From positions 120,001-152,000 of the forward strand of contig NZ_AP014945.1 in the NCBI RefSeq assembly GCF_001548275.1: 32,000 bases of DNA, in the 5' to 3' direction. The translations under genes and the position numbers were made by a program. Origin of the DNA: Caldimicrobium thiodismutans (GTDB lineage Bacteria; Desulfobacterota; Thermodesulfobacteria; Thermodesulfobacteriales; Thermodesulfobacteriaceae). Below the pieces are notes generated by a model. That model saw only the letters and a program-made list of their open reading frames with translations. It ran no database searches and had not been told where the DNA came from. This document shows, in pieces, positions 1,616-31,763 of this stretch (positions are counted from its first letter, which is position 1; each line of letters opens with the position of its first letter).

Positions 1616-1676
1616 ATTTTAAAGAACTAAGGGGTTTTGTCAAGGCAGTTGTATAAGTCCATATCTTTTGAGACTC
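1616..1676 (-). promoter_or_regulatory. Box-type promoter P1 for the 1606..328 operon: box, -35 TTGACA, -10 TAAAAT
   Basis: On the minus strand the box GAGTCTCAAAAGATATGGACTTATAC occupies 1676-1651. A 7-nt gap follows, then TTGACA (1643-1638), a 16-nt spacer, TAAAAT (1621-1616), 9 nt and the ATG at 1606. Confidence 0.6.
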
Positions 1677-1800
1677 TATAGGATTTTTTCTTAGGGCGTA
1701 ACACAAATTAAATCTCTCCACACAATCCCCCTTCGGAAAGAAAGGATAAATAATCTTTAAAATCTTTCTTTTAAGTAGGGGTTTAAAATTTTAAACCCCT
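1637..1800. repeat. Left arm of a ~165-bp inverted repeat flanking the 1979-3529 gene; it ends in a 24-bp perfect palindrome
   Basis: 1637-1800 aligns by eye at roughly 90% identity from TCCATATC onward with the reverse complement of 3746-3912. The inner end is AGGGGTTTAAAATTTTAAACCCCT (1777-1800). Weaker similarity continues to about 1850. Confidence 0.85.
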
Positions 1801-1943
1801 ACCCTGGATACCTCAAAAGCAGAAACAGTTGCCTCTGTTCCATACTTTTTACCACCCCTCCTCAAACACCTTAGGTCTGCCCCTACATTAATGATGAAAA
1901 CTGTCTATTTTTAAAAAGGGATTGCACAAGGAAAGAGCTAACA

Positions 1944-1972
1944 TTGATTTTTCATAAAAGAAGCCTTAAAAT
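1944..1972 (+). promoter_or_regulatory. Sigma-70-like promoter placed for a leaderless transcript of the 1979 gene
   Basis: TTGATT (1944-1949), a 17-nt spacer, TAAAAT (1967-1972), 6 nt (aaagct), then the ATG at 1979. There is no SD. Confidence 0.5.
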
Positions 1973-1978
1973 AAAGCT

Positions 1979-3529
1979 ATGGAGAAAAAGCTTCCCATCG
2001 GGATTTCAAGCTTTGAAAAGATTAGAAGTGAGCCCTATTATTATGTGGATAAAACTCCATTTGTTGTAAAGCTTGTTGAAGAGGGAACTTATTATTTTCT
2101 CTCCCGCCCAAGGAGATTTGGAAAATCCCTTTTTGTGGATACCCTGAAACAGGCCTTCCTTGGAAGAAAAGAGCTTTTCCAAGGGCTCTATCTTGAAAAG
2201 AACTGGGACTGGAGTGTCAGGTATCCTGTTATACATATTGATTTTGGGGGAGGAGAGGTTAAAAGTATAGAAGCCCTTGAGAAATGGATACTTCAGCAAC
2301 TTGAGGAACATCAAAATCTTTATGATATTACCTGCAAATGGAAAGATGATTATCATGCCTGTTTCAGGGAACTAATCTTAAAACTTTCTCAGAAATATGC
2401 ATCTAAAGTAGTAGTTCTTGTTGATGAGTATGACAAACCCATTCTTGATTGCATTGAGGATAGAGAAACTGCAAAGGCAGTAAGAGATGTCCTTAAGAAT
2501 TTTTATAGTGTCTTAAAACCCCTTGATGCTCAGCTCAAGTTTGTTTTCTTAACAGGGGTCTCTAAATTCTCAAAGGTTTCTCTTTTTTCTGGGCTAAATC
2601 AGTTAAATGATATTACCATTGATAAGAGATTTGCAGAAATCTGTGGATACACTCAAGAAGAGCTTGAAGAGGTCTTCAGAGAGGAATTAGAAGATAAGGA
2701 TTTAGAGCTTATAAGATGCTGGTATAATGGTTATTCCTGGCTTGGGGAGCCTCTCTACAATCCCTTTGATATCCTTCTCTATTTAGAGGAAAAAAAATTC
2801 CACCCCTACTGGTTTGAAACTGGGACTCCAAGTTTTCTTGTAAAACTTTTAATGGAGAAGCGTTTTTATCTTCCCGAGCTTGAAGACCTAACTGCAACTG
2901 ATGACCTTATTGGCTCTTTTGACCTTGACTATATTGAACCAGAAAACCTTCTCTTTCAGGTAGGTTATTTGACCATCAAAGAAACTATAGAAGAGGAAGG
3001 GTTAGTTCTCTATAAGCTTTCTTATCCGAATAAAGAGGTAAAGATTAGTTTAAATAGAGTTCTTTTTTCTTATTTTACTCAGCTCAGTTCAGAAAGACCA
3101 AGGCTATCTCTTAAGATGATTGAGGCAGTGAGGGAGAGGGATTTTGAGAAGATGAAGAGGGTTCTTGAGAGTCTTTATGCAGGGATCCCCCATGATTGGT
3201 TCAGGAAAAATGAGCTTTCCCGTTATGAGGGGTATTATGCCAGTTGTTTTTATGCCTTTTTATGTGGGTCAGGGCTTGAGGTGATACCTGAGGATATAAC
3301 AAATAAGGGGCAGATAGATTTGACGGTGCTCTATAGGGAAAGGGTTTATCTTTTTGAGTTCAAGGTGGTTGAGGGAGAGGGGGGAGAAGCTAAAGCTTTA
3401 GCTCAACTGAAGGAGAAGGGTTATCACAAGAAGTATGATGGTTCAGCCAAGGAGATTTATCTTATTGGGATTGAGTTTTCTTCAGGGGAGAGGAATCTTA
3501 AGAGTTTTTTCTGGGAAAAAATAAATTGA
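1979..3529 (+). CDS. AAA-ATPase-like protein with a C-terminal PD-(D/E)XK nuclease domain (the 'predicted AAA-ATPase' / PDDEXK_9 architecture)
   Basis: This is a 516-aa ORF. The N-terminus LPIGISSFEKIRSEPYYYVDKTPFVVKLVEEGTYYFLSRPRRFGKSLFVDTL is the hallmark of this family. VVVLVDEYDKP is Walker-B-like. The C-terminal GQIDLTVLYRERVYLFEFKV fits a D...E-x-K nuclease core. Confidence 0.8.
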   Translation: MEKKLPIGISSFEKIRSEPYYYVDKTPFVVKLVEEGTYYFLSRPRRFGKSLFVDTLKQAFLGRKELFQGLYLEKNWDWSVRYPVIHIDFGGGEVKSIEALEKWILQQLEEHQNLYDITCKWKDDYHACFRELILKLSQKYASKVVVLVDEYDKPILDCIEDRETAKAVRDVLKNFYSVLKPLDAQLKFVFLTGVSKFSKVSLFSGLNQLNDITIDKRFAEICGYTQEELEEVFREELEDKDLELIRCWYNGYSWLGEPLYNPFDILLYLEEKKFHPYWFETGTPSFLVKLLMEKRFYLPELEDLTATDDLIGSFDLDYIEPENLLFQVGYLTIKETIEEEGLVLYKLSYPNKEVKISLNRVLFSYFTQLSSERPRLSLKMIEAVRERDFEKMKRVLESLYAGIPHDWFRKNELSRYEGYYASCFYAFLCGSGLEVIPEDITNKGQIDLTVLYRERVYLFEFKVVEGEGGEAKALAQLKEKGYHKKYDGSAKEIYLIGIEFSSGERNLKSFFWEKIN

Positions 3530-3552
3530 TTTTTTACTGCTTTATTATGGAA

Positions 3553-3582
3553 GTCTGCATAAGTTCATATCCTTACAAGAAG
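3553..3582. repeat. Distal box of the tRNA-Tyr promoter module, an inverted copy of the promoter box
   Basis: GTCTGCATAAGTTCATATCCTTACAAGAAG. Its GCATAAGTTCATATCCTT part matches the reverse complement of the promoter box (GCATGCGTCCATATCTTT) at 13 of 18 positions without gaps. Related copies lie at 27281-27305, 31664-31686 and, reverse-complemented, 22581-22607. Confidence 0.7.
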
Positions 3583-3640
3583 AAGGAAGTGGGGTAAAAG
3601 GGGAATTAGATATCTATATAAGGGAGGTTATACAAGTCTG

Positions 3641-3724
3641 AAAGTAACACAGGCAATCTTGCCTGTGGAGGTAAATTACACTTCAATGTATGAAAGAAAC
3701 ACAGACAAGAATGTCTGTGCTACA
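3641..3724. repeat. Two tandem ~32-nt units, each containing a hairpin
   Basis: GAAAGTAACACAGGCAATCTTGCCTGTGGAGG has the stem CACAGGCA/TGCCTGTG at 3648-3667. GAAAGAAACACAGACAAGAATGTCTGTGCTAC has the stem CACAGAC/GTCTGTG at 3700-3719. A related hairpin occurs in the left arm at about 1820-1841. Confidence 0.6.
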
Positions 3725-3745
3725 ACAAACCCACAAAAAAATTCA

Positions 3746-3912
3746 AGGGGTTTAAAATTTTAAACCCCTACTTAAGGAAAGATTTTGCAGATTTTTTATC
3801 CTTTCTTTCCGAAGGGGAATGGGTATGTGGAGAGGTTTAATTTGTGTTAGGCCCAAAGAAAAAATCCTATAGAGTCTTAAAAGATATGGACGCATGCATG
3901 CCCTTGACAAAA
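3746..3912. repeat. Right arm of the ~165-bp inverted repeat; it starts with the same 24-bp palindrome
   Basis: AGGGGTTTAAAATTTTAAACCCCT lies at 3746-3769. The rest is the reverse complement of 1637-1776 with scattered substitutions and small indels. On the minus strand the palindrome is followed by TGAATTTTTTT. Confidence 0.85.
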
Positions 3913-17583: not shown

Positions 17584-17643
17584 ATTTTAAGCCCTCAAAA
17601 GCCCCTGTCAAGATAATATATGCGTCCATATCTTTTGAGACTC
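17584..17643 (-). promoter_or_regulatory. Box-type promoter P3 for tRNA-Ser (and possibly rpsO)
   Basis: On the minus strand: box GAGTCTCAAAAGATATGGACGCATAT (17643-17618), a 6-nt gap, TTGACA (17611-17606), a 16-nt spacer, TAAAAT (17589-17584), then 9 nt to the tRNA 5' end. Confidence 0.65.
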
Positions 17644-17699
17644 AAATCTACCCTACACCCAACCCAAATCATTCATTTTTTGAATAATTTTATTTAATT

Positions 17700-17854
17700 C
17701 TCATTTTACAGTAGGGGTAAACCTATGTGTTTGCCCTCTTTGGGTATCACCTTTCACCTTTTTACCTCTCACCTTTTACTACCCTTTTTGCCTATATTGA
17801 TCTAAAGTTATGAAGGAAGATTACATCTTTACCTGAAAATATGAATTTACATAA
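17700..17854. repeat. Mosaic repeat segment upstream of P3: GTAGGGG box, C/T-rich (anti-SD-like) heptad tract and a degenerate distal box
   Basis: CAGTAGGGGTAAACC lies at about 17709-17725. TCACCTTTCACCTTTTTACCTCTCACCTTTTACTACCC lies at about 17747-17785. GAAAATATGAATTTACATAA (17835-17854) resembles the box in inverted orientation, matching about 12 of 19 positions. Confidence 0.55.
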
Positions 17855-17909: not shown

Positions 17910-18908
17910 ATGTCAAAGAAGAAACCTCCTGTTCCCTATGACCTTTTTGCCAAGGCCTTTCTCAAAGACCCTGAAAACTTAAAAGGCTTCCTCTTAACCT
18001 TCCTCCCTGATCACATTAAAACTCATCTTGACCTTGACTCCCTTAAAATTATCCCTGAAGAGCAAGTCTCTCTCTCAAGAAAAAAGAGAGAAATCCCGGA
18101 CCTTGTTGCTGAGGTTAATCTTCTTAGTGAAGGGAAACCTTCAACCAAAGCCCATCTCTACATCCTTATTGAGCACAAAAGTGCACCTGATAAAAGGATT
18201 TACCTTCAGATTTTAAATTACATAACCGCTTTAAATGAGAGGTCTTTCAAGGAGGGGAAGGGGTATGTGCCTGTTTTACCCCTTGTGTTTTATGAAGGGG
18301 ATAAGCCCTGGGAGTATCCTGAAAGGATAGAGGAGATATTTTCAGTGCCAGAGGGGTTAAAGGGAGAACTTTTTAAGGTTCATGTGGTAGATTTAAAGAG
18401 GGTAGAGGATGAGAAGATATTGAGGATATTTGATATTTTAGCAGGGCTTGGGTGTTATCTTTATTTAATAAAGGCGGAAGCAGGTAATTTTGAAGAGATA
18501 ATTGAAGTTATTACAAGGGCGATAGAGAGATTAGTAGCGATAGGGGAGAAGGGGAGGTGGGAGATAGGGTTTTTAATTACGATATCTGAAATAAAGTTTA
18601 GGGTTGACGGGGAGGTAATTTGGTTTAATATATTAGATAGGTGTGAAGAAGAGGGGGTAAAGATGGAGTTAAAGAACTTTTGGGATAGAGTAGGAGAGAA
18701 ATTTTATCAGCAGGGGATATATCATGGATTGATACAGGATGCAAGGGAACTTGTGCTTGAGGCCATAGAGGTGAAGCTCGGGTATGTGCCTGAGGAAGTG
18801 AGGGAGAGGGTGGTAAGGGAGGAGGATAGAAAAGTTCTTAAAGCGTGGCATAGAGAAATAATTCTTGCCAAGGGTTCTGAAGATATCTTTAAACTCTTTG
18901 AAAGTTGA
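17910..18908 (+). CDS. Rpn/YhgA-like PD-(D/E)XK recombination-promoting nuclease / putative transposase family protein
   Basis: This is a 332-aa ORF. The N-terminus YDLFAKAFLKDPENLKGFLLTFLP and the core PDLVAEV...HLYILIEHKS match the family pattern (D...IEHQS-type). Confidence 0.7.
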   Translation: MSKKKPPVPYDLFAKAFLKDPENLKGFLLTFLPDHIKTHLDLDSLKIIPEEQVSLSRKKREIPDLVAEVNLLSEGKPSTKAHLYILIEHKSAPDKRIYLQILNYITALNERSFKEGKGYVPVLPLVFYEGDKPWEYPERIEEIFSVPEGLKGELFKVHVVDLKRVEDEKILRIFDILAGLGCYLYLIKAEAGNFEEIIEVITRAIERLVAIGEKGRWEIGFLITISEIKFRVDGEVIWFNILDRCEEEGVKMELKNFWDRVGEKFYQQGIYHGLIQDARELVLEAIEVKLGYVPEEVRERVVREEDRKVLKAWHREIILAKGSEDIFKLFES

Positions 18909-20020: not shown

Positions 20021-20198
20021 GTTATTGTCATTATAGCTCAAAATACTCTATAAGAAAGCCTTCGACCCTTTGGGAGTTATATAAAGTATCTTTAAGGTTT
20101 CAAAATCAACATTTTTAAGCATCTTGATTTTATACAGGGTAAGATTAAACTTTAACACTTCAGAAGATTTAAAAGCATAAAAGAACCGAGGCTTAAGG

Positions 20199-21119: not shown

Positions 21120-22334
21120 GTGTCAAAAAGTAAGAATAAAATAAGTATTTTCCTCATTATTAAGGAGTTTTTTCAAAAATTTTTAAGAGATGAAATCCTT
21201 CTCTTCGCGCAGGGTTTAACCTATAATACCCTTTTAACTATTATTCCATTATTAGGATTAGTGGTTTCTCTCGGGAGAAGTTTTCTTCAAGAAGACCTGG
21301 TTATCCAGCAAAGTTTTCTCTTCTTTGCCAATTATCTTAGCACAGAAGCCTTGATACAGGTAATGGAAAGAATTATTAGTCTTTTGGAGAATTTAAAGAA
21401 GTTTCCCCTTGGTAAGTTTAGTCTTTTCTTTTATTTTATTATGAGTCTTGGGCTCCTCTTTCAGCTTGAGGATGCTTTAAATCGTATTTTTTTGAGCCTA
21501 AAGAGAAGGACTTTTAAAGAAAGGATTCTCTTTTATTGGATTGTTCTCACCCTTTCCCCTTTTATTTTCTTCCTCCCTGTGCTTTTACAGACTTCTCTTA
21601 AGCCTTATTTGAGTTATCAGCTTATTTTTTATTTCTTTTTTCTGTTGATATTCTTTTTTTTGCTTTACATCTATTTTCCTGCCCGAAAGGTTAGTAAGGT
21701 TGCTGCTATTAAAGGAGCTATTTTTGCTACCATTCTCTGGTATGGATTTTCCTTTCTTTTTGGTTTTTATGTAAAAAAGGCAGTAGCTTATTCCAAACTT
21801 TACGGAAGTTTGTCTATTTTTCCTATTTTTCTGATTTTTGTGTTTTTAAATTGGCTAATTTTTCTAATCGGTGCAGAGATTACCTATTTTTTAGAGAGGA
21901 GGCCCTGGAAAAAGAGGGTAATTACCCTTGCCTCTCCTTTGAAAGAGTTTTTTCTTTTAATCTTTTTGACTAAGAGCTTTTATAGTGGACAGGTTGTCTC
22001 CTTAAAGACCTTAAGTAAAGAGCTTCCTCTTTCAGAAGAGGAAATCTTGATGGCTATAAAAGAGCTTGAAAAGAAAAATTTTGTATTTTTAAGGGATGAG
22101 GAGGTATTTTTTCGCATTCCCCCAGAAGGGATTTTAATAGGGGATTTATTTTCTGGGGACATTTTTCAGGAAATAAAGGAAAGTAAAGAATTTTTATCCT
22201 TGATGACCGAGCTTTGCCCTTTTAGGGAGGATATTTTAAGAAAATCCTTAAGGGATTTAGTTATTTCTGAGGATATAAAAAATGCCGAGGGCGGGAGTCG
22301 AACCCGCACGGGGGTAAACCCCAGTGGATTTTGA
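21120..22334 (+). CDS. YihY/BrkB-family membrane protein (formerly annotated 'ribonuclease BN') with a ~130-aa soluble C-terminal extension; GTG start
   Basis: This is a 404-aa ORF with FAQGLTYNTLLTIIPLL and multiple TM helices typical of YihY. The last 52 nt overlap tRNA-Leu on the opposite strand. Confidence 0.7.
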   Translation: MSKSKNKISIFLIIKEFFQKFLRDEILLFAQGLTYNTLLTIIPLLGLVVSLGRSFLQEDLVIQQSFLFFANYLSTEALIQVMERIISLLENLKKFPLGKFSLFFYFIMSLGLLFQLEDALNRIFLSLKRRTFKERILFYWIVLTLSPFIFFLPVLLQTSLKPYLSYQLIFYFFFLLIFFFLLYIYFPARKVSKVAAIKGAIFATILWYGFSFLFGFYVKKAVAYSKLYGSLSIFPIFLIFVFLNWLIFLIGAEITYFLERRPWKKRVITLASPLKEFFLLIFLTKSFYSGQVVSLKTLSKELPLSEEEILMAIKELEKKNFVFLRDEEVFFRIPPEGILIGDLFSGDIFQEIKESKEFLSLMTELCPFREDILRKSLRDLVISEDIKNAEGGSRTRTGVNPSGF

Positions 22335-22367
22335 GTCCACCGCGTCTGCCTGTTCCGCCACCTCGGC
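22283..22367 (-). tRNA. tRNA-Leu (anticodon CAA), class II
   Basis: The minus strand reads GCCGAGGTGGCGGAACAGGCAGAC...GGACTCAAAATCC...GCGGGTTCGACTCCCGCCCTCGGCA. The acceptor GCCGAGG pairs with CCTCGGC and no CCA is encoded. Confidence 0.9.
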
Positions 22368-22376
22368 TAATATTAA

Positions 22377-22436
22377 ATTTTAATCCCCTTTTTTTAGTTT
22401 ACAAGCATTTGGATGTATTCATATCTTTTGAGACTC
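22377..22436 (-). promoter_or_regulatory. Box-type promoter P4 for tRNA-Leu
   Basis: On the minus strand: box GAGTCTCAAAAGATATGAATACATCC (22436-22411), a 6-nt gap, TTGTAA (22404-22399), a 16-nt spacer, TAAAAT (22382-22377), then 9 nt to the tRNA 5' end. Confidence 0.6.
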
Positions 22437-22607
22437 TTATCTCCCCTTTTTAGCAAATAAACTGGGTTATCCTTTTATCCTAAACATTAAACGATAGATC
22501 TTCCCCTACATTGATGAGACATATGTTATTTGACATTATTTCTACCTCTCACCTCTCACCTTTTTACTCTCCTTCCTTTTCCTTGTAAGGATGTGAGCTT
22601 ATACAGG
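22411..22607. repeat. Type-2 mosaic module (~197 bp), a near-identical inverted copy of 27281-27487
   Basis: From CATATCTTTTGAGACTCTTATCTCCCC to TTATTTCTACCT, about 130 bp, I see only ~5 mismatches against the reverse complement of the 27.3-kb copy. The ends are inverted boxes at 22411-22436 and 22581-22607. Confidence 0.9.
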
Positions 22608-22647
22608 TTGCCAAGGGAGAATGAGTAGGTGGACAAAAATCCTCATT

Positions 22648-22708
22648 AAGTCTTAAAAGATATGGACGCATACATTTTCTTGACAGAAAGGCTTTGAGAA
22701 GTTAAAAT
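22648..22708 (+). promoter_or_regulatory. Box-type promoter P5 for rimP-nusA-ylxR
   Basis: Box AAGTCTTAAAAGATATGGACGCATAC (22648-22673), a 6-nt gap, TTGACA (22680-22685), a 17-nt spacer, TAAAAT (22703-22708), 6 nt, then the ATG at 22715. Confidence 0.65.
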
Positions 22709-22714
22709 TTATTT

Positions 22715-23200
22715 ATGTATAAAAGCTCAGAAGGGGAAAAGGATCTTAAGGAAAAGCTATGGGAATTGCTTGAATTGCCTATTCTGAAGAAAAAAATGGA
22801 GCTTGTGGATATAGAGTGGAGAAGAGAAAGAACAGGTTGGGTGCTTAGACTATATATTGATAAACCCGGAGGTGTTACCATAGGAGATTGCGCAAAAATT
22901 AGTGAACTTGTAGGTCACCTTTTGGATAAAGAGAATCTTATTCATCATCCTTATAATCTTGAGGTTTCAAGCCCCGGTATTGAAAGACCTCTTAAAACAA
23001 AAGAACACTTTGAGAGATTTAAGGGAGAAAAGGCCAAAATTACTCTTAAAAATCCTCTTGCAGGCAGAAGAAATCTTGTGGGGACAATTCTTGGGATTAA
23101 AGAAGATTTCTTAGAACTTTCTGCCGAGGGAAAAGTTTGGGAAATTGCCCTCTCAAACATTAAAAAAGCCAATCTTCAGCCTGAAATAACTTTTAAATAA
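22715..23200 (+). CDS. rimP: Ribosome maturation factor RimP
   Basis: This is a 161-aa ORF. LVDIEWRRERTGWVLRLYIDKPGGVTIGDCAKIS...YNLEVSSPGIERPL matches the RimP core. It lies upstream of nusA. Confidence 0.9.
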   Translation: MYKSSEGEKDLKEKLWELLELPILKKKMELVDIEWRRERTGWVLRLYIDKPGGVTIGDCAKISELVGHLLDKENLIHHPYNLEVSSPGIERPLKTKEHFERFKGEKAKITLKNPLAGRRNLVGTILGIKEDFLELSAEGKVWEIALSNIKKANLQPEITFK

Positions 23201-23212
23201 AAGGAGTTATAA

Positions 23213-24448
23213 ATGCAAGTATCAAAAGAGATGAAAAAGATTGTTGAGGCCTTAAGTAAGGAAAAAGGCTTATCTAAGGAAATTGTAGTTGAGGCCCTTG
23301 TGGAGGGGTTAAAAACTGCTGCTAAAAAGAAATATGGCTCAGGAGCTAAAATTGAGGTTAAATACGATGATGAAACCGGAGAAATTGAGATTTATCGTTT
23401 TCGGGAGGTTGTGGATAAAGTAGCGGATCCCAACCGTGAGATAGCCTTTGATTCTGCACAAAAGCTTTCACCCAATGTGAGCATAGGAGATATGCTTGGT
23501 GAAAAGATTAACCTTCAGGACCTTGGGCGAATTGCAGCTCAAATTGTAAAACAGCTCTTTTCTCAACGCCTGCGCTTGGCTGAAAAACAGATAATCTATG
23601 ATGAATACAAGCATCGCCTTGGAGAAATAGTGACAGGTTATGTGCATCGTTTTATCAAACGGGATGTAGTGCTTAATCTGGGTAGAGCAGAGGCCCTGCT
23701 GCCTGAGGAAGAACAAATACCTACGGAGAGGTATCATCGTGGAGATAGAGTTAAGGCCATAGTAATTGAGGTTTATCGCCAGAAGGAGCCTCAGATCGTA
23801 GTTTCAAGGTCTCATCCAGCCTTTGTTAAGAAACTCTTTGAAAAAGAAGTACCTGAAATTCAAGAAGGTTTAGTTAAAATTATAGCTATTGCAAGAGAGC
23901 CAGGCTCAAGAACAAAGATTGCCGTTGCCTCTACAGACCCTAATGTGGATCCTGTGGGAGCCTGTGTGGGGGTTAGAGGCTCAAGGATTTCTGCAGTGCT
24001 TCAGGAAATCAAAGGTGAAAAAATAGATGTGGTTCTTTATGAAAAGGATCCAGCTAAGTTTGTCTATAATGCTTTATCACCCGCCGAGTGCAGTAAGGTT
24101 ATCGTGGATGAAGCAACTAAGACCCTTGAGGTTATAGTGCCTGATGATCAACTCTCCCTGGCAATCGGAAGAAAAGGAGAGAATGTAAGACTGGCTTCAA
24201 AGCTTATAGGCTGGAGAATAGATATTTTAAGTGAAACTCAATACATGAGAAGACAGGATCCTGAATTTTTGAAACTTCTTAAAGTGACAGGTCTTTCTGA
24301 TGAGATTGCAGGACATCTCTATGAGGCTGATATCAGAGATTTAAAAACTCTTCTTGAAACTCCGCCCGAGCGAATTTCTCAACTTACCAGATTTTCGGAA
24401 GACCAGGTTAAAGAAATCCTTGAAAAGGCAAAAAGCGCCCTAAAATAG
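23213..24448 (+). CDS. nusA: Transcription termination/antitermination factor NusA
   Basis: This is a 411-aa ORF with N-terminal, S1 (GEIVTGYVHRFIKRDVVLNLG) and KH (DPVGACVGVRGSRI; LAIGRKGENVRLASKL) domains. Confidence 0.96.
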   Translation: MQVSKEMKKIVEALSKEKGLSKEIVVEALVEGLKTAAKKKYGSGAKIEVKYDDETGEIEIYRFREVVDKVADPNREIAFDSAQKLSPNVSIGDMLGEKINLQDLGRIAAQIVKQLFSQRLRLAEKQIIYDEYKHRLGEIVTGYVHRFIKRDVVLNLGRAEALLPEEEQIPTERYHRGDRVKAIVIEVYRQKEPQIVVSRSHPAFVKKLFEKEVPEIQEGLVKIIAIAREPGSRTKIAVASTDPNVDPVGACVGVRGSRISAVLQEIKGEKIDVVLYEKDPAKFVYNALSPAECSKVIVDEATKTLEVIVPDDQLSLAIGRKGENVRLASKLIGWRIDILSETQYMRRQDPEFLKLLKVTGLSDEIAGHLYEADIRDLKTLLETPPERISQLTRFSEDQVKEILEKAKSALK

Positions 24449-24675
24449 TGCCTCGGAAGGGACATGTTCCAGAAAGAACCTGTGTGGCCTGTAGAATAAA
24501 GGTTCCTAAAGGAGAGCTTATAAGATTTGTCGCCAGTAAGGGAGAAATCCTTCTTGATGAAAAGGGAATCTTACCAGGAAGAGGGGCCTATCTTTGCAAG
24601 AATTGTTTTCTTAAAAAGGATCAGCCAAAGATTCTTAAAAAACTTAAAAAGGCCTTGAGGATGGCTGAAAAATGA
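24448..24675 (+). CDS. ylxR: YlxR/RnpM-family (DUF448) RNA-binding protein; GTG start overlapping the nusA stop (TAGTG)
   Basis: This is a 75-aa ORF. ERTCVACRIKVPKGELIRFV...GRGAYLC is the DUF448 signature. The position after nusA is classical. Confidence 0.85.
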   Translation: MPRKGHVPERTCVACRIKVPKGELIRFVASKGEILLDEKGILPGRGAYLCKNCFLKKDQPKILKKLKKALRMAEK

Positions 24676-25559
24676 AAGTCTTTATTCTTGGAGGAACTGG
24701 ATTTATTGGTAGTTATCTTACCGAATATTATCTCAATAAAGGTGCAAGGGTTTTCCTTTTAGTAAGAAATCCTCAAAGGGTTAAAACTATAAAACCAGGA
24801 GTTGAGGTCGTTTTTGGAGAGGCTTTAAAAGGAGGAGACTGGCAAAGGCTTATACCTGAAATGGATTATGTAATCAATCTTGTAGGAGAGACTATTTTTA
24901 AACGCTGGACTCCTGAATATAAAAAACTTATCTGGGATTCAAGAATACTTTCCACAAGAAGGGTAGTTGAAGTCCTAACCGAAAGAAATATTCTTTTTAA
25001 TGCCAGTGCAGTTGGTTATTATGGAGATGGAGGGGAAAGGGAGCTAACAGAAGAGAGTCCTCCTGGTAAGATGTATGTATCAGAGCTTTGCAAGGCCTGG
25101 GAAGAAGAGGCTTTGAAAGGAGAATCCACTGGAGCAAGAATTATTGTGGGTAGATTTGGGATTGTCCTTGGAAAGGGTGGAGGGATGCTTTCTGTGATCC
25201 TTCCCTTTTTTAAACTTGGCCTTGGAGGAAGGCTTGGTTCAGGAAAGCAGTGGTTTCCCTGGATTCATGTGGAAGATTTAGTAAGAGCCATTGACTTTCT
25301 TTATGAAAAAGAGGTTAGTGGAATTTTTAATGTCACTTCTCCTGAACCTGTGCAAAATAAAGAAATGACAAAGATTATAGGGAAGGTTTTACGGAGACCC
25401 ACTCTCTTTCCAGTACCCAAATTTGCCCTAAGGCTTCTTTATGGAGAACTTGCCGATGTAATTATGGCAAGTGCAAGGGTGATTCCAAAAAGACTCCTTG
25501 AAAGGGGTTTTACTTTCAAATATCCCTCCTTTGAATCTGCCTTTAGGGCCTCAATGTAA
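24672..25559 (+). CDS. TIGR01777-family (YfcH-like) NAD-dependent epimerase/SDR with a DUF1731 C-terminus
   Basis: This is a 295-aa ORF with ILGGTGFIGSYL (Rossmann) and a C-terminal PKRLLERGFTFKYPSFESAF typical of the family. The start overlaps the ylxR stop (ATGA). Confidence 0.8.
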   Translation: MKVFILGGTGFIGSYLTEYYLNKGARVFLLVRNPQRVKTIKPGVEVVFGEALKGGDWQRLIPEMDYVINLVGETIFKRWTPEYKKLIWDSRILSTRRVVEVLTERNILFNASAVGYYGDGGERELTEESPPGKMYVSELCKAWEEEALKGESTGARIIVGRFGIVLGKGGGMLSVILPFFKLGLGGRLGSGKQWFPWIHVEDLVRAIDFLYEKEVSGIFNVTSPEPVQNKEMTKIIGKVLRRPTLFPVPKFALRLLYGELADVIMASARVIPKRLLERGFTFKYPSFESAFRASM

Positions 25560-25575
25560 GCCAATTAGAGGGAAA

Positions 25576-25848
25576 CTAAAGTTCTTCTTCAGGTTCCTCA
25601 GCTTCCTCCTCATATACATACACTGGTTCTTCTGTAACTTTTTCTTCCTTTGGGAGGATGGTGTGAGGGACACGAATGATTTCTCTCAGTTGATCTAATT
25701 CTAAATTAAGGTCAGGATCCTCTTTACAAATCGAGCATTGTTTAATATGTCTATCCACAAGCTCCATCATTTTAATGGGAGATAAAGTGAAGCTTCTTAC
25801 CTGTTGATACCAGTCTCGCAAAAGGGTCTTAAGCCTTGGGCATTGCAT
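25576..25848 (-). CDS. Small hypothetical protein with a ZAS-like C...H-x3-C-x2-C motif and a strongly acidic C-terminal tail
   Basis: This is a 90-aa ORF preceded by the strong SD AGGAGGAGG. The candidate ligands are Cys3, His34, Cys38 and Cys41 (DRHIKQCSICKE). The tail reads EEPVYVYEEEAEEPEEEL. Confidence 0.6.
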   Translation of the reverse strand: MQCPRLKTLLRDWYQQVRSFTLSPIKMMELVDRHIKQCSICKEDPDLNLELDQLREIIRVPHTILPKEEKVTEEPVYVYEEEAEEPEEEL

Positions 25849-25866
25849 TTTTTGGTGCGCCTCCTC

Positions 25867-26448
25867 CTATACTTTTTCGGCTAAAAATATCCAAACATAA
25901 GGTTCTTTGGCAATTTTTTGTTTTATCTTAAAGGAACTTTCTTTTAAGAGGTTTATGATCTCCTCTTTTTCAAAGACCTCCTCTGGTGGTGGCCCCATAT
26001 CTCTTTCTCTTTTGTCCCAGTCAATTAGGAGTAATTTGCCCTTTTTCTTTAAGAGGTGATGCAAATCTTTTAAGGTCTGATGCGGTTCATTGAGTTCGTG
26101 AAAAGTGAAGGCAAGATAAATGAAATCAAAAAAGGCTGGGCTAAAAGGAAGGGGCTCAAATTCATCTATCTTCAAAAATTTTACTTTTTTCATGAGGGGA
26201 GAATCTTTGTATTTTTCTTGGGCATATCTTAAGAGCTCTTCCTGAATATCAATAGCATAAATTGTGCCAGAGGGGCTTAAAAGAGATACCAGATAGGGTA
26301 AATAAAAACCTGTGCCAACTCCAAAGTCAAGAATACTCTCAAAATGGCTAAGATTCAAATCTTTGAATAGAGCTTCTGGATCAAAGATTTTAAGCCTTTC
26401 AGGACTTTCCAATTTTTCCAGCTTTCTGGGATCAAATTTATGGGCCAT
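25867..26448 (-). CDS. Class I SAM-dependent methyltransferase
   Basis: This is a 193-aa ORF. Motif I is ILDFGVGTGFY. The N-terminus HKFDPRKLEKLESPERLKIF is typical of small Methyltransf_11/25-type enzymes. Confidence 0.8.
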   Translation of the reverse strand: MAHKFDPRKLEKLESPERLKIFDPEALFKDLNLSHFESILDFGVGTGFYLPYLVSLLSPSGTIYAIDIQEELLRYAQEKYKDSPLMKKVKFLKIDEFEPLPFSPAFFDFIYLAFTFHELNEPHQTLKDLHHLLKKKGKLLLIDWDKRERDMGPPPEEVFEKEEIINLLKESSFKIKQKIAKEPYVWIFLAEKV

Positions 26449-26544
26449 TGCAAAAAGTTCTTTTATTTTAATGGAATTTTCAAAAAAATCAAAAAGATAA
26501 AGACTTTTGGGGAGGATGGGTTAAGAATTATAACTGATAAAATC

Positions 26545-27147
26545 TTATCTTATGTATAGAGTTCTCTTAAAGTTGAAAAGGGCTTCAAGATAGGTGTCAG
26601 TTCCACCTCTTAACCCCACTTTTAAATCCTTTTCAAGATTACAATATTTAAGACAGGTTCCGCAGGAAAAGATCTCAACTCCTCTTTTTTCAAGTTCTTT
26701 GAGAAGAGGGATAAAGGTCTCATCAAGAGTGGTAAGTTTTACCCCTGTGTTCATAAAAAAGATCCTGTCAGGAAGGAGATTCTGAGCAAGCATGGTCTCA
26801 AAAAAGCCTTTAAGAAGAATTTTTCCTAATTCTCTATCTTCCCCCATGTGATCAGATGCAACAATTACAAGAAGATTTTTCTCCCCTTCTCTGGGGCAGG
26901 AGATTACATATTCTTCTGAGGAAATTCCTTCTCCCTTTTCAATGAGAAGATGAAATTCTTCCCCTTTTTTTTCTGTGGAGAGAAGTTTATGCCCCTGAGC
27001 AGAGAGAAATTTTTGGATATTTTGAAGGGAGACCTCACTATCAATTAAAACCCTTATTTTTTCACCTACCTGGATTTCATCTAAAGCCTCTTTAGTTTTG
27101 ATCACTGGTTGAGGACAAGGTAGCCCCCTTGCATCAACCTCTTTCAT
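26545..27147 (-). CDS. yedF: YedF-type sulfurtransferase-like protein (N-terminal TusA/SirA CPxP domain fused to a DsrE-like domain)
   Basis: DARGLPCPQPVIKTKEAL is the TusA motif. The C-terminal half, LLVIVASDHMGEDRELGKILLKGF...CGTCLKYC, is DsrE-like. I prefer the ATG at 27147, which lies 8 nt after AGGAGG, over the track's TTG start at 27165. Confidence 0.7.
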   Translation of the reverse strand: MKEVDARGLPCPQPVIKTKEALDEIQVGEKIRVLIDSEVSLQNIQKFLSAQGHKLLSTEKKGEEFHLLIEKGEGISSEEYVISCPREGEKNLLVIVASDHMGEDRELGKILLKGFFETMLAQNLLPDRIFFMNTGVKLTTLDETFIPLLKELEKRGVEIFSCGTCLKYCNLEKDLKVGLRGGTDTYLEALFNFKRTLYIR

Positions 27148-27280
27148 AGGAAAAGCCTCCTGCAATTTTTGTTATCATTAAAAAATACACTATAGTAGAA
27201 GTAAAAACAAATAAAAAATTTCAATTTTTAATTTAAAATTAATTGAAAAATCTAATCAAAATATAAGGAGAGAACCTTAG

Positions 27281-27487
27281 GTCTGCATAAGTTTATACCT
27301 TACAGGAAAAAAGGTGGTAAAAGGTAAAAAGGTAAGAGGTGAGAGGTGAAAGGTAGAAATAATGTCAAATAACATATGTTTCATCAATTTAGGGGAAGAT
27401 CTATCGTTTAATGTTTAGGATAAAAGAATAACCCAGTTTATTTGCTAAAAAGGGGAGATAAGAGTCTCAAAAGATATGGACGCATAC
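27281..27487. repeat. Type-2 mosaic module (~207 bp), an inverted near-identical copy of 22411-22607
   Basis: In order it holds the distal box GTCTGCATAAGTTTATACCTTACAG (27281-27305), an AGGT heptad tract (27311-27356), CATCAATTTAGGGGAAGATC (about 27384-27408), and the proximal box GAGTCTCAAAAGATATGGACGCATAC (27462-27487). Confidence 0.9.
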
Positions 27488-27522
27488 ACAGGTCTTGCAA
27501 GATTTTAAAATCCTTTTAAGAT
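27462..27522 (+). promoter_or_regulatory. Box-type promoter P6 for the 27529 kinase-fusion gene
   Basis: Box (27462-27487), a 7-nt gap, TTGCAA (27495-27500), a 16-nt spacer, TAAGAT (27517-27522), 6 nt, then the ATG at 27529. There is no SD. Confidence 0.55.
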
Positions 27523-27528
27523 TTAGCT

Positions 27529-29082
27529 ATGGAAAATACCATTCCCTGGGCAGAGGTCTTAACATTTAGCAATCTTCCCTTTGACACAAAAACATTTCAG
27601 ATTCTGCAGACCCATATCTCCTATGTGATTATTACTGATTCTATAGTTTATAAAATCAAAAAGCCCGTAAATTTTGGATTTCTTGACTTTACCACCCTTG
27701 AAAAAAGAAAGTTTTATTGTGAAAGGGAAGTAGAGCTTAACCGCAGGCTTTGTGGAGATCTTTATATAGGGGTGGTTCCTATTGTTAAAACAGAGAAAGG
27801 TTATCAGATTGAGGGAGAGGGTGAGCCAGTTGAATATGCCGTTAAGATGGGAAGGCTTCCTGAAGAGGGGATGATGAAAGGGCTCTTAAGGGAGGGGCTC
27901 TTAACTAAGGCTCATCTTGATCTCATTGTGGATACCCTGGTTCCCTTCTATAAAAGTGCAGAAACTGGAGAGAAGGTGAATTACTTTGGAAGTCTTGAGG
28001 TGATCTCCTTTAATACTGAGGAAAATTTTGAGCAAACTAAAGGTTTTGTAGGTAAAGCCTTAACCAAAAGAAAATATGAACACATTGTTAATTATACCAG
28101 AAATTTTATTAAGGAGAGGGCTTCAATTTTTCAAAAAAGAATAAAAGAGGGTTATATTCGAGATGGTCATGGTGATCTCTATTCTGCCAATATTTGCTTT
28201 GATGACTTAAAAAGGGTTTATATCTTTGATTGTATTGAATTTAATGATCGCTTTAGATGTGGAGATGTGGCTCAGGATCTTGCCTTTCTTGCCATGGATC
28301 TTGACTTTTATCGTCTTAAAGAATTTTCTGATTATTTTATAGAGGAGTATGTGAAGAAGAGTGGAGACAAAGGGCTTTATGAGGTGCTTGATTTTTACAA
28401 GTGTTACAGGGCTTATGTGAGGGGGAAAATAGGTTGTTTTACCTCTGAAGATGAGAGGGTTCCAGAGGAAGAGAGGATTAAAGCCCTTGAATCAGCTCAG
28501 AAATATTTTGATCTTGCCTTTTCCTATGCAGGGGGGAAACCAAAGGTAGCTGTTTTTATGGGGCTTTCAGGAACAGGGAAGACCTTTTTGGCTAAAGAAA
28601 TTCAAGCAAGGTATCCAGTCGCCTATCTTTCATCGGATATTGAAAGAAAAAGACTTTTGAGTTTAAGCCCTGAGGAGCACTATTTTGCTGAGTTTGAAAG
28701 GGGAATTTACTCCCCTGAGATGACAGAAAAAACCTATGCTCAGTTGATAGAAAAGGCTATAGAGGAGACTTCCTTTGGAAGGGATGTTGTTATTGATGCT
28801 ACTTTCAGAGAGAAAAGATTTAGGGATAATCTTAAGAAGGCTTTAGAAGGAATTGGTATTGAGCCCCTTTGGGTCTTATGCACCGCTACGGATGAGGTAG
28901 TAAAGGAGCGTATAGAAAAAAGGCTTAAGGAGAAAACTGCATCAGATGCCCTCTTTGAGACCTATCTTAAGCAAAAGGAAAGATTTGAGCCCCCACAGTC
29001 AGAAGATAATTTATTAATTCTGGATACTTCCCAGGAACTCTCCAAAGTTCTCGGTTATCTTGAAGAATTTTTAGATTTTTAG
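27529..29082 (+). CDS. Bifunctional phosphotransferase-like (APH/ePK-fold) plus P-loop kinase (AAA_33-like) fusion protein
   Basis: This is a 517-aa ORF. DGHGDLYSANICF (HGD-x4-N catalytic loop) and IFDCIEF lie in the N-terminal domain. GLSGTGKTFLAK (Walker A) lies in the C-terminal ~180 aa. Confidence 0.7.
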   Translation: MENTIPWAEVLTFSNLPFDTKTFQILQTHISYVIITDSIVYKIKKPVNFGFLDFTTLEKRKFYCEREVELNRRLCGDLYIGVVPIVKTEKGYQIEGEGEPVEYAVKMGRLPEEGMMKGLLREGLLTKAHLDLIVDTLVPFYKSAETGEKVNYFGSLEVISFNTEENFEQTKGFVGKALTKRKYEHIVNYTRNFIKERASIFQKRIKEGYIRDGHGDLYSANICFDDLKRVYIFDCIEFNDRFRCGDVAQDLAFLAMDLDFYRLKEFSDYFIEEYVKKSGDKGLYEVLDFYKCYRAYVRGKIGCFTSEDERVPEEERIKALESAQKYFDLAFSYAGGKPKVAVFMGLSGTGKTFLAKEIQARYPVAYLSSDIERKRLLSLSPEEHYFAEFERGIYSPEMTEKTYAQLIEKAIEETSFGRDVVIDATFREKRFRDNLKKALEGIGIEPLWVLCTATDEVVKERIEKRLKEKTASDALFETYLKQKERFEPPQSEDNLLILDTSQELSKVLGYLEEFLDF

Positions 29083-29225
29083 ATTTTTCCACCTCCATAC
29101 TGAGAATTTATAATACAACCAATCAGTTTTAAGGGAGGATTTCAACCTGGGGCAGACTGGTCTACCCCTGCTTTAATGTTGAATCTGCCTTGATTTCAAA
29201 AAGATAGCCTATGGGAAATTTAAAA

Positions 29226-29328
29226 AGCAGATTTATCTGCTAAAATCAGCAGATTTAAATCTCAAAAGATATATACGCATACCCCCTTGTCTTTTAAAAA
29301 GGAATGATTATTTTTTGGTTAACCAAAA
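29226..29328 (+). promoter_or_regulatory. groES upstream control region: palindrome, degenerate promoter box P7, -35/-10 and a 16-bp palindrome at the predicted start site
   Basis: AGCAGATTTATCTGCT (29226-29241) is followed by a repeated half-site AGCAGATTT (29248-29256). The box AAATCTCAAAAGATATATACGCATAC lies at 29257-29282. Then come TTGTCT (29287-29292), a 16-nt spacer, TATTTT (29309-14) and TTTTGGTTAACCAAAA (29313-29328). Confidence 0.5.
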
Positions 29329-29355
29329 ATCAATATTGAGGAGGGAGGTGGATCT

Positions 29356-31652: not shown

Positions 31653-31763
31653 GTATAAGTTTTCCATAAGTTCACATCCTTACAAGAAAAATGAAGGGTG
31701 GAAAAAGGTGAGAGGATATGGACGCATACAATTTTTTGCTTTTCTTTAAAGCAGAGGTATAAT
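31653..31763 (+). promoter_or_regulatory. Shortest mosaic module with box-type promoter P8, about 120 nt upstream of mnmA
   Basis: The distal box CCATAAGTTCACATCCTTACAAG lies at 31664-31686. AAGGTGAGAGG is fused directly to the truncated box ATATGGACGCATAC (31716-31729). A 6-nt gap follows, then TTGCTT (31736-31741), a 16-nt spacer and TATAAT (31758-31763). Confidence 0.55.

Follow-up and report, generated by a model that had tools for sequence, protein, structure and literature searches.

The stretch analysed here, hereafter the window, is a 32,000-nucleotide segment of the Caldimicrobium thiodismutans genome (contig NZ_AP014945.1, positions 120,001 to 152,000). It is a housekeeping region that contains the tRNA-Tyr/Gly/Thr genes, tuf, nusG, rplKAJL, rpoBC, rpsO, tRNA-Ser, an Rpn/YhgA-like gene, prmA, tRNA-Leu, rimP-nusA, a TusA-DsrE gene, an AAA_33 kinase-like gene, groES/EL, rubredoxin and mnmA. 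Two intergenic segments of ∼200 bp, one upstream of tRNA-Leu (W4) and one upstream of the AAA_33 gene (W6), are near-identical copies in opposite orientation. We conclude that the two copies are probably members of a discrete family of miniature, non-coding, inverted-repeat elements specific to the C. thiodismutans lineage. The elements of the window are numbered W1 to W8. Comparisons were made with same-species loci at ∼99% nucleotide identity to the window (L001–L003, L058–L060, L062 and L063) and with three congeneric lineages (L052, L055 and L061), whose AAA_33 proteins are 72–79% identical to that of the window.

Two inverted copies share one orientation relative to their promoters

The original prediction described the ∼200-bp pair as nearly identical in the centre and diverging toward the distal end, and both observations hold. 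An inverted repeat search returned arms at 22410–22564 and 27334–27488 that are 94% complementary across 155 nt. With blastn, 22420–22561 matches 27478–27337 at 97.2% over 142 nt (4 mismatches), and identity declines in the alignment toward the distal ends. W4 (∼196 bp, 22410–22605, minus strand) contains a proximal box at 22410–22439, AGGTGAG heptads at 22544–22564 and a distal inverted end at 22582–22605. The tRNA-Leu promoter (TTGTAA-16-TAAAAT, 22377–22404, minus strand) lies 5 nt downstream of the W4 box and precedes the tRNA-Leu gene (22283–22367). The 3′ end of a BrkB-family open reading frame (ORF; 21120–22334, plus strand) overlaps this opposite-strand tRNA gene by ∼50 nt (22283–22334).

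W6 (∼205 bp, 27284–27488, plus strand) belongs to the same subfamily, with its distal end at 27284–27307, heptads at 27330–27354 and box at 27461–27488. The putative AAA_33 promoter downstream (27495–27528, plus strand) consists of TTGCAA (27495–27500), a 16-nt spacer and TAAGAT (27517–27522), with the ATG of a leaderless-type start at 27529; it was read from the sequence and scores below the threshold of the consensus promoter scan. W4 and W6 have the same orientation relative to the promoter downstream of each, and appear inverted because the tRNA-Leu and AAA_33 promoters point in opposite directions. A second inverted pair (1657–1800 and 3746–3891, in W1 and W2), which the original prediction had not picked out, is 90% identical over 147 nt. 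For the two ∼200-bp copies, chance duplication looks less likely than a portable promoter add-on. An assembly artefact is unlikely: three independent assemblies agree with the flanks at 99%, and the source sequence is one contig of 1.81 Mb.

Anatomy of the element family

Elements of the family range from 68 to 343 bp and contain no ORF proper to them; the genes called within them are short and lack a Pfam match. Each element terminates in imperfect inverted repeats, TGCATAAGTTCATATCC ... GGATATGGACGCATACA, with a left end of (C)TGCATAAGTTCATATCCTTACAAG and a right end of GAGTCTCAAAAGATATGGACGCATACA. The distal end, TGCATAAGTTCATATCCTTACAAG, is an imperfect inverted copy of the promoter-proximal box and is recognisable in 12 elements. 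Across these 12 the terminal repeats agree at 11–15 of 20 positions, with a mean of 12.7, whereas random 20-mer pairs drawn from the same sequences agree at 6.8 ± 1.7. Within the window the distal box is found at 3556–3581, 22582–22605 (minus strand), 27284–27307 and 31663–31688. The inverted distal box that had been predicted is thus present at four sites, but its 18-mer match, counted from the sequence, is 14 of 18 rather than 13 of 18.

We take a form of 105–113 bp as canonical; it occurs in five copies at unrelated loci and runs from the distal end through purine-rich AGGTGAG heptads and GAAATAGTAGAAAAAATCCTNTNGAGTCTC to the box. Copies of 196–343 bp hold extra interior segments, nested and hairpin-rich in the longer members, and the 68-bp copy is an internal deletion. 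Boundaries are sharp: three copies of ∼250 bp share ∼91% identity and have unrelated flanks, and the element boundaries can therefore be fixed at (C)TGCAT... and ...GCATACA. In the subfamily represented by L059 (12790–13038) and L060 (5956–6206), a distal CAGATC and a box GACCTG replace CATATC and GATATG. The deviation is matched at both ends, and the two terminal repeats therefore co-vary.

Interior submotifs, which had also been proposed as shared pieces of the modules, are in excess. AGGTGAGAGGT (≤1 mismatch) has 8 matches against 0.66 expected, every one within a module and on the promoter strand, and GTAGGGG has 10 against 3.6 expected. Heptads occur on the promoter strand without exception, in numbers that differ between strains. 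A structured RNA or small RNA identity was rejected for the modules: searches of Rfam returned tRNAs alone at the gathering threshold and noise alone at E ≤ 1, and the fold z-scores of W6 (+0.38 and −0.29) indicate no excess structure. Intrinsic terminators were looked for in the modules and none was found.

Some interiors do fold. The W2-type interior carries three perfect hairpins and, as single-stranded DNA, has a fold z-score of −5.4 relative to shuffled sequence; interior hairpins start or end with GTAG/CTAC, as in GGGCAAACACATAGGTTTACCCCTAC and GTAGGGGTTTAAAATTTTAAACCCCTAC. Such features, and the lack of target-site duplications (TSDs) that fits this class, recall palindrome-associated elements of the repetitive extragenic palindromic (REP) kind, that is, a REP/REPIN-RAYT or IS200/IS605-derived type that moves as single-stranded DNA hairpins. 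We regard this origin as highly improbable. The hairpins are optional interior passengers that canonical 105-bp elements lack, the family is defined by terminal inverted repeats rather than by subterminal hairpins, and the W4/W6 module has no excess structure. Moreover, no RAYT or TnpA gene was seen in ∼140 kb of loci, by an eye check of Pfam lists only.

The promoter box and its register

The box AAGATATGGACGCAT, allowing up to 3 mismatches, has 11 matches in the window against 0.58 expected. Eight of the 11 are intergenic, each followed by a −35 hexamer, and every intergenic box precedes a sigma-70-type promoter pointing at a gene. Measured from the box 3′ end to the −35 in 17 aligned boxes, the gap is 5 nt for 11 boxes, 6 nt for four, 3 nt for one and 8 nt for another; the box spans about −41 to −67. 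A tRNA gene lies downstream of at least six boxes. Between copies the spacer and the −35 and −10 hexamers differ, and likeness stops at ...GCATACA. Spacer and hexamers are locus-specific, and the repeated unit therefore ends just upstream of the promoter. The portable promoter cassette of the original prediction is borne out in that the modules are promoter-coupled; the element itself is without a promoter, however, and the groES promoter is kept in relatives that lack the element. From its position, and from the kind of genes served, we infer that the box is an upstream promoter element.

The rimP promoter bears on the age of the box. Box core and promoter (ATATGGACGCATACA-N5-TTGACAGAAAGG...AGTTAAAATTT) are conserved in L055 (5874–5924), where nearby intergenic sequence cannot be aligned. 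Such conservation suggests an ancient cis-element under constraint, which the repeat family may have carried or copied to many other promoters. Half-boxes with the core ATATGGACGCATACA and without GAGTCTCAAAAG were also observed. One lies upstream of a sigma-70 family gene, 8 nt from the −35 (L058 3585–3650), and another upstream of a gene of a SAVED/type III CRISPR locus, 5 nt from the −35 (L062 6688–6702). At 1606, 1979 and 27529 the deduced −10 stands just 6–7 nt before the ATG (e.g. TAAAAT-AAAGCT-ATG, 1968–1981), which suggests leaderless mRNAs.

That the box keeps so strictly to one place and direction with respect to the −35 could also reflect a fixed regulatory architecture, in which a single protein binds both the proximal box and its inverted distal counterpart, looping out the DNA in between to control the promoter, and copies are alike through selection on binding sites. 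Conservation of the box core across species at rimP fits such looping, as does the co-variation of both ends in one subfamily, which is expected if one protein reads both. We nevertheless consider it a distinctly unlikely account of the repeats. Likeness of 91–97% over 100–250 nt of interior, with sharp outer boundaries, far exceeds what binding sites explain, and the distance between boxes varies from ∼30 to ∼300 bp. About 8 of ∼20 boxes, including those of window copies W1, W5 and W7, have no distal box recognisable within the mismatch limit. In addition, the orthologous promoters of three sister lineages have neither box, and one copy is strain-specific. A further candidate role, in which the distal box would serve a divergent promoter, was rejected: it fits only the CBS gene in L060, mostly no −35/−10 follows, and the distal box of W2 faces the 3′ end of a gene.

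Distribution among strains and related lineages

A census found ∼20 boxes in 89,231 bp of the species and 1 in ∼51 kb of L052, L055 and L061 combined (binomial p = 9e-4), an element density ∼20-fold above that of the congeneric lineages. The 18-nt box pattern gave 36 singletons in a genome contig collection that lacks the source genome, approximately the chance expectation for its size, and 12 matches in metagenome contigs, all unrelated; neither element end matched viral contigs.

At groES, all lineages conserve the promoter from CCCCTTGTCTTT as far as the start codon, and alignability starts at 29284, the 3′ edge of the box. The box and the ∼125-nt module upstream of it are present in C. thiodismutans only and missing in the three congeneric lineages. 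One gain at this site is more parsimonious than repeated loss, because the lineage tree is star-like and has no clade excluding TF1. The mnmA element is likewise missing in L052, and the AAA_33 element in L052, L055 and L061. Between the groES promoter and the ribosome-binding site lies a perfect 18-nt palindrome, TTTTTGGTTAACCAAAAA (29312–29329), which L055 conserves in full and of which L052 and L061 conserve half. No CIRCE (controlling inverted repeat of chaperone expression) element is present at groES, and the palindrome is a candidate operator of a heat-shock regulator.

Presence/absence differences, which the original prediction had proposed to look for, occur both against these sister lineages, whose orthologous promoters lack the element, and within the species, where W6 is missing in L001–L003 with flanks 99% identical; none of these cases gave a clean empty site. 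W6 sits in a strain-specific segment (27160–27574) whose place in the relatives is taken by 2.85 kb with four genes and no box (L001 14447–17302). These four extra genes, between the TusA-DsrE and AAA_33 genes, encode an HVO_A0114-like protein, a peroxiredoxin, a small ORF and an ORF of 279–357 amino acids. In these 99%-identical strains the AAA_33 promoter is an ordinary TTGATT-17-TATGAT. The first 15 codons of the window AAA_33 gene form a diverged allele, which, together with the replacement at 27160–27574, indicates a recombination tract.

Copies within one genome also share derived variants, a pattern of concerted evolution. W4 differs by ∼4% between strains, against ∼0.8% in its flanks, and in the window strain W4 and W6 have four derived sites in common, none of them present in W4 of L001 or L002. 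In an alternative account, plain segmental duplication and gene conversion of promoter regions ('promoter reuse') produced the copies with no dedicated mobility: homologous recombination among existing boxes and other short intergenic repeats would shuffle upstream segments from promoter to promoter, the inverted ends being a by-product. The gene-conversion-like pattern of W4 and W6 agrees with that account, as do the arrival of W6 within a recombined 414-bp tract, the origin of W2 as a chimera of two subfamilies and the absence of a consistent TSD. W3 (tRNA-Ser) and W5 (rimP) are alike through the −35 and −10, pointing to whole-promoter duplication. Even so, we judge promoter reuse unlikely as the full explanation. 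Recombination among copies cannot seed a box at a box-less promoter, as at groES, mnmA and AAA_33; canonical units of ∼105 bp with the same two ends stand at five unrelated loci; and the ∼20-fold density gap from the congeners implies efficient copy-number gain.

A different miniature element offers a separate observation on the species. A miniature inverted-repeat transposable element (MITE) of ∼339 bp, with terminal inverted repeats (TIRs) of ∼20 bp (CGAATTGCCTCATTAAAAATC / CGTAATGCCTCATTTAATTTTC), is inserted between ADH and prmA in two strains of 99% identity (L001 7003–7341 and L002 ∼2252–2595). Position 20065 of the window is the corresponding empty site, and an 88% copy is found at L058 10771–11090. 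This clean filled/empty polymorphism shows that miniature elements are active in the species.

Target sites and candidate mobilising genes

Several points weigh against, or qualify, the proposed family of mobile elements. The search for TSDs that had been suggested found no consistent one across the 12 elements. AGGTC stands on both flanks of W6, the youngest copy (27276–27280 and 27489–27493), and may be there by chance; three other elements have 4-nt flank matches with offsets. No autonomous partner or transposase sharing the element ends was found in ∼140 kb of loci. The polymorphism at W6 exchanges a 2.85-kb segment for 414 bp, with diverged flanks, and is not a clean filled/empty site. 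The genome-wide copy number of ∼400 was extrapolated from the ∼89 kb to which relatives gave access, part of it via repeated genes, and any promoter-boosting activity of the box is deduced from position alone. Finally, the distance to the −35 is fixed in every copy examined, which random transposition does not account for; so exact a register needs either targeted insertion or strong selective filtering.

Two window genes were considered as mobilisers, following the proposal that Rpn-like or PDDEXK genes might serve, and neither was retained. The PDDEXK_9/AAA-ATPase gene (1979–3529) is bracketed by W1 and W2 with outward-facing boxes, as an autonomous element might be. At least six paralogues exist in C. 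thiodismutans (76–89% identity). This candidate was rejected because the paralogues share only 1940–3530 and have no box-terminated flanks; the copies in L062 (10001–11551) and L063 (10001–11395 and 13381–14931), for example, stand among CRISPR (clustered regularly interspaced short palindromic repeat) arrays. These L062 and L063 copies adjoin a type III-A/SAVED locus, and other phyla have close homologues of the protein (84% for one from Thermodesulfovibrio). The Rpn/YhgA-like (Transposase_31) gene at 17910–18908 has at least four paralogues (84–97% identity), far fewer than there are elements. Two of the paralogues have an element on the 5′ side and one has none, an association that is uninformative at one element per 4.5 kb. 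In the 99%-identical locus L059, synteny with the window ends ∼20 nt after the Rpn/YhgA-like gene (18928).

Other elements in the window

All five modules of the original prediction (W2, W3, W4, W6 and W8) exist where they were placed; W1, W5 and W7 are further copies. W1 (1650–1802, minus strand) has its box at 1650–1679, upstream of the promoter of a CDP-alcohol phosphatidyltransferase gene. A proximal segment of ∼150 nt, which includes the palindrome GTAGGGGTTTAAAATTTTAAACCCCTAC, is common to W1 and W2. W2 (343 bp, 3556–3898, plus strand) lies upstream of the tRNA-Tyr/Gly/Thr-tuf promoter, with the distal end at 3556–3581 and the box at 3869–3898. Its interior (3555–3772) recurs in L059 and L060 at ∼91% identity between unrelated flanks, and W2 is a chimera of the L059/L060-type subfamily and the proximal ∼100 nt of W1. 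W3 (17617–17854, minus strand) lies upstream of the tRNA-Ser promoter, with a box at 17617–17646, a REP-like hairpin ending in CCCCTAC at 17705–17730, heptads at 17749–17777 and a degenerate distal end near 17830–17854 that faces the Rpn/YhgA-like gene.

W5 (22648–22708, plus strand) is a solo box (22648–22674) together with the rimP-nusA promoter (TTGACA-17-TAAAAT, 22680–22708). W7 (29157–29283, plus strand) comprises a box variant (29257–29283) and an upstream module before the groES promoter, and has no distal box. W8 (68 bp, 31663–31730, plus strand) precedes the TTGCTT-N16-TATAAT promoter of mnmA. It had been read as an internal deletion, and comparison with L062 11738–11842 agrees: W8 derives by deletion from the canonical ∼105-bp form, its distal end running via heptads into the box.

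Proposed explanation

The evidence supports a MITE-like spread of an upstream promoter module. The box core probably began as a resident cis-element, because the box is ancient at rimP-nusA. The box may act as an upstream promoter element, either UP-like or as an activator site that contacts RNA polymerase, in which case the elements would be portable promoter boosters kept preferentially at tRNA, translation and chaperone genes. Spread may have proceeded by transposition in trans, or by recombination and gene conversion between copies, and the copies multiply and exchange segments.

A stronger version is conceivable. The element might home to promoters, with insertion directed to the site just before a −35 hexamer via RNA polymerase holoenzyme or a promoter-bound factor, or a protein binding both ends might double as an activator, and a selfish repeat would then have rewired the promoters of its host. 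We consider this version doubtful. If it were true, perhaps a third or more of the species' promoters would have come to form one regulon dependent on the box in the time over which the genus diverged.

The spread of regulatory sites by mobile DNA is a major theme in eukaryotes and thinly documented in bacteria. In C. thiodismutans a small element seems to have brought the same 27-nt box into exact −35 register at many housekeeping promoters, among them those of tRNAs, rimP-nusA and groESL, and orthologues in sister lineages are without it. Should the box be active, the species would represent a natural experiment in rapid, genome-wide promoter rewiring, and the element would provide a compact, portable upstream activating module for thermophilic chassis. 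Should insertion be promoter-directed, this would be a targeting mode undescribed for bacterial MITEs. Because the register is exact and the expansion lineage-specific, the idea that a repeat element rewires promoters can be tested directly.

Comparison with known systems

The MITE-like traits named in the original prediction (TIRs, size range and deletion derivatives) are supported, as are nested derivatives, a mosaic interior and tight coupling to promoters. As in MITEs generally, the elements are small and non-coding, have terminal inverted repeats, occur as dispersed copies with common boundaries and show presence/absence differences.

Among known families, there is a close likeness to the Correia elements of Neisseria (Correia repeat enclosed elements, CREE, or Neisseria miniature insertion sequences, NEMIS). 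These are non-coding elements of 100–155 bp with TIRs, present in hundreds of intergenic copies without an identified transposase. They occur in full-length and internally deleted forms and affect the expression of neighbouring genes. This comparison draws in part on a 2011 paper by Siddique et al., cited in PMC3575422. Size, inverted ends, deletion forms and a link with promoters are common to both families. Correia ends, however, carry or create −35/−10 promoters, with a duplicated TA target, a 26-bp TIR and an integration host factor (IHF) site, whereas the Caldimicrobium element stops 5 nt before a resident −35 and supplies the upstream box alone. It also has an unrelated end sequence, no TA duplication or consistent TSD, a single orientation relative to the promoter and a different host.

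Repeats of the REP, bacterial interspersed mosaic element (BIME), REPIN and enterobacterial repetitive intergenic consensus (ERIC) types are similar as mosaic, modular intergenic repeats with palindromes, and some Caldimicrobium interiors bear the GTAG/CTAC hallmark. REP-type elements are hairpin-defined and stand mostly at the 3′ ends of genes; the Caldimicrobium family, in contrast, is TIR-defined and solely 5′ and promoter-proximal.

Functionally, the box may resemble the UP element and class I activator sites, such as the rrnB P1 UP element and the MarA/SoxS marbox, which lie at ∼−40 to −67 and act in an orientation-dependent manner. Its placement upstream of the −35 agrees with the UP location (about −38 to −59), and it likewise accompanies promoters of tRNA and translation genes. 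Unlike an UP element, the box GATATGGACGCATACA does not have the A/T-rich consensus to which the alpha-CTD of RNA polymerase binds. It is also ∼27 nt long, near-invariant between copies and far more conserved than ordinary binding sites, and it rides on a repeat element.

Putative mobile promoters (PMPs) were defined by Matus-Garcia, Nijveen & van Passel (2012; PMC3575422) as sequences that lie before non-homologous genes of the same genome and share at least 80% identity across at least 50 nt. The category is purely operational; most families are pairs, and the mechanism of mobilisation is not known (PMC3575422). W4/W6 (97% over 142 nt) and W1/W2 (90% over 147 nt) fall within this definition. 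The Caldimicrobium family differs from PMPs in its defined anatomy (two ends, a 105-bp form and subfamilies), its ∼20 copies per 89 kb and its fixed −35 register. With promoter-bearing MITEs (Correia) and PMPs in the literature (PMC3575422), the original statement that nothing of the kind had been described was too strong. What sets the Caldimicrobium element apart from both is that it brings an upstream box rather than a −35/−10, in a fixed register and orientation and with a sequence of its own.

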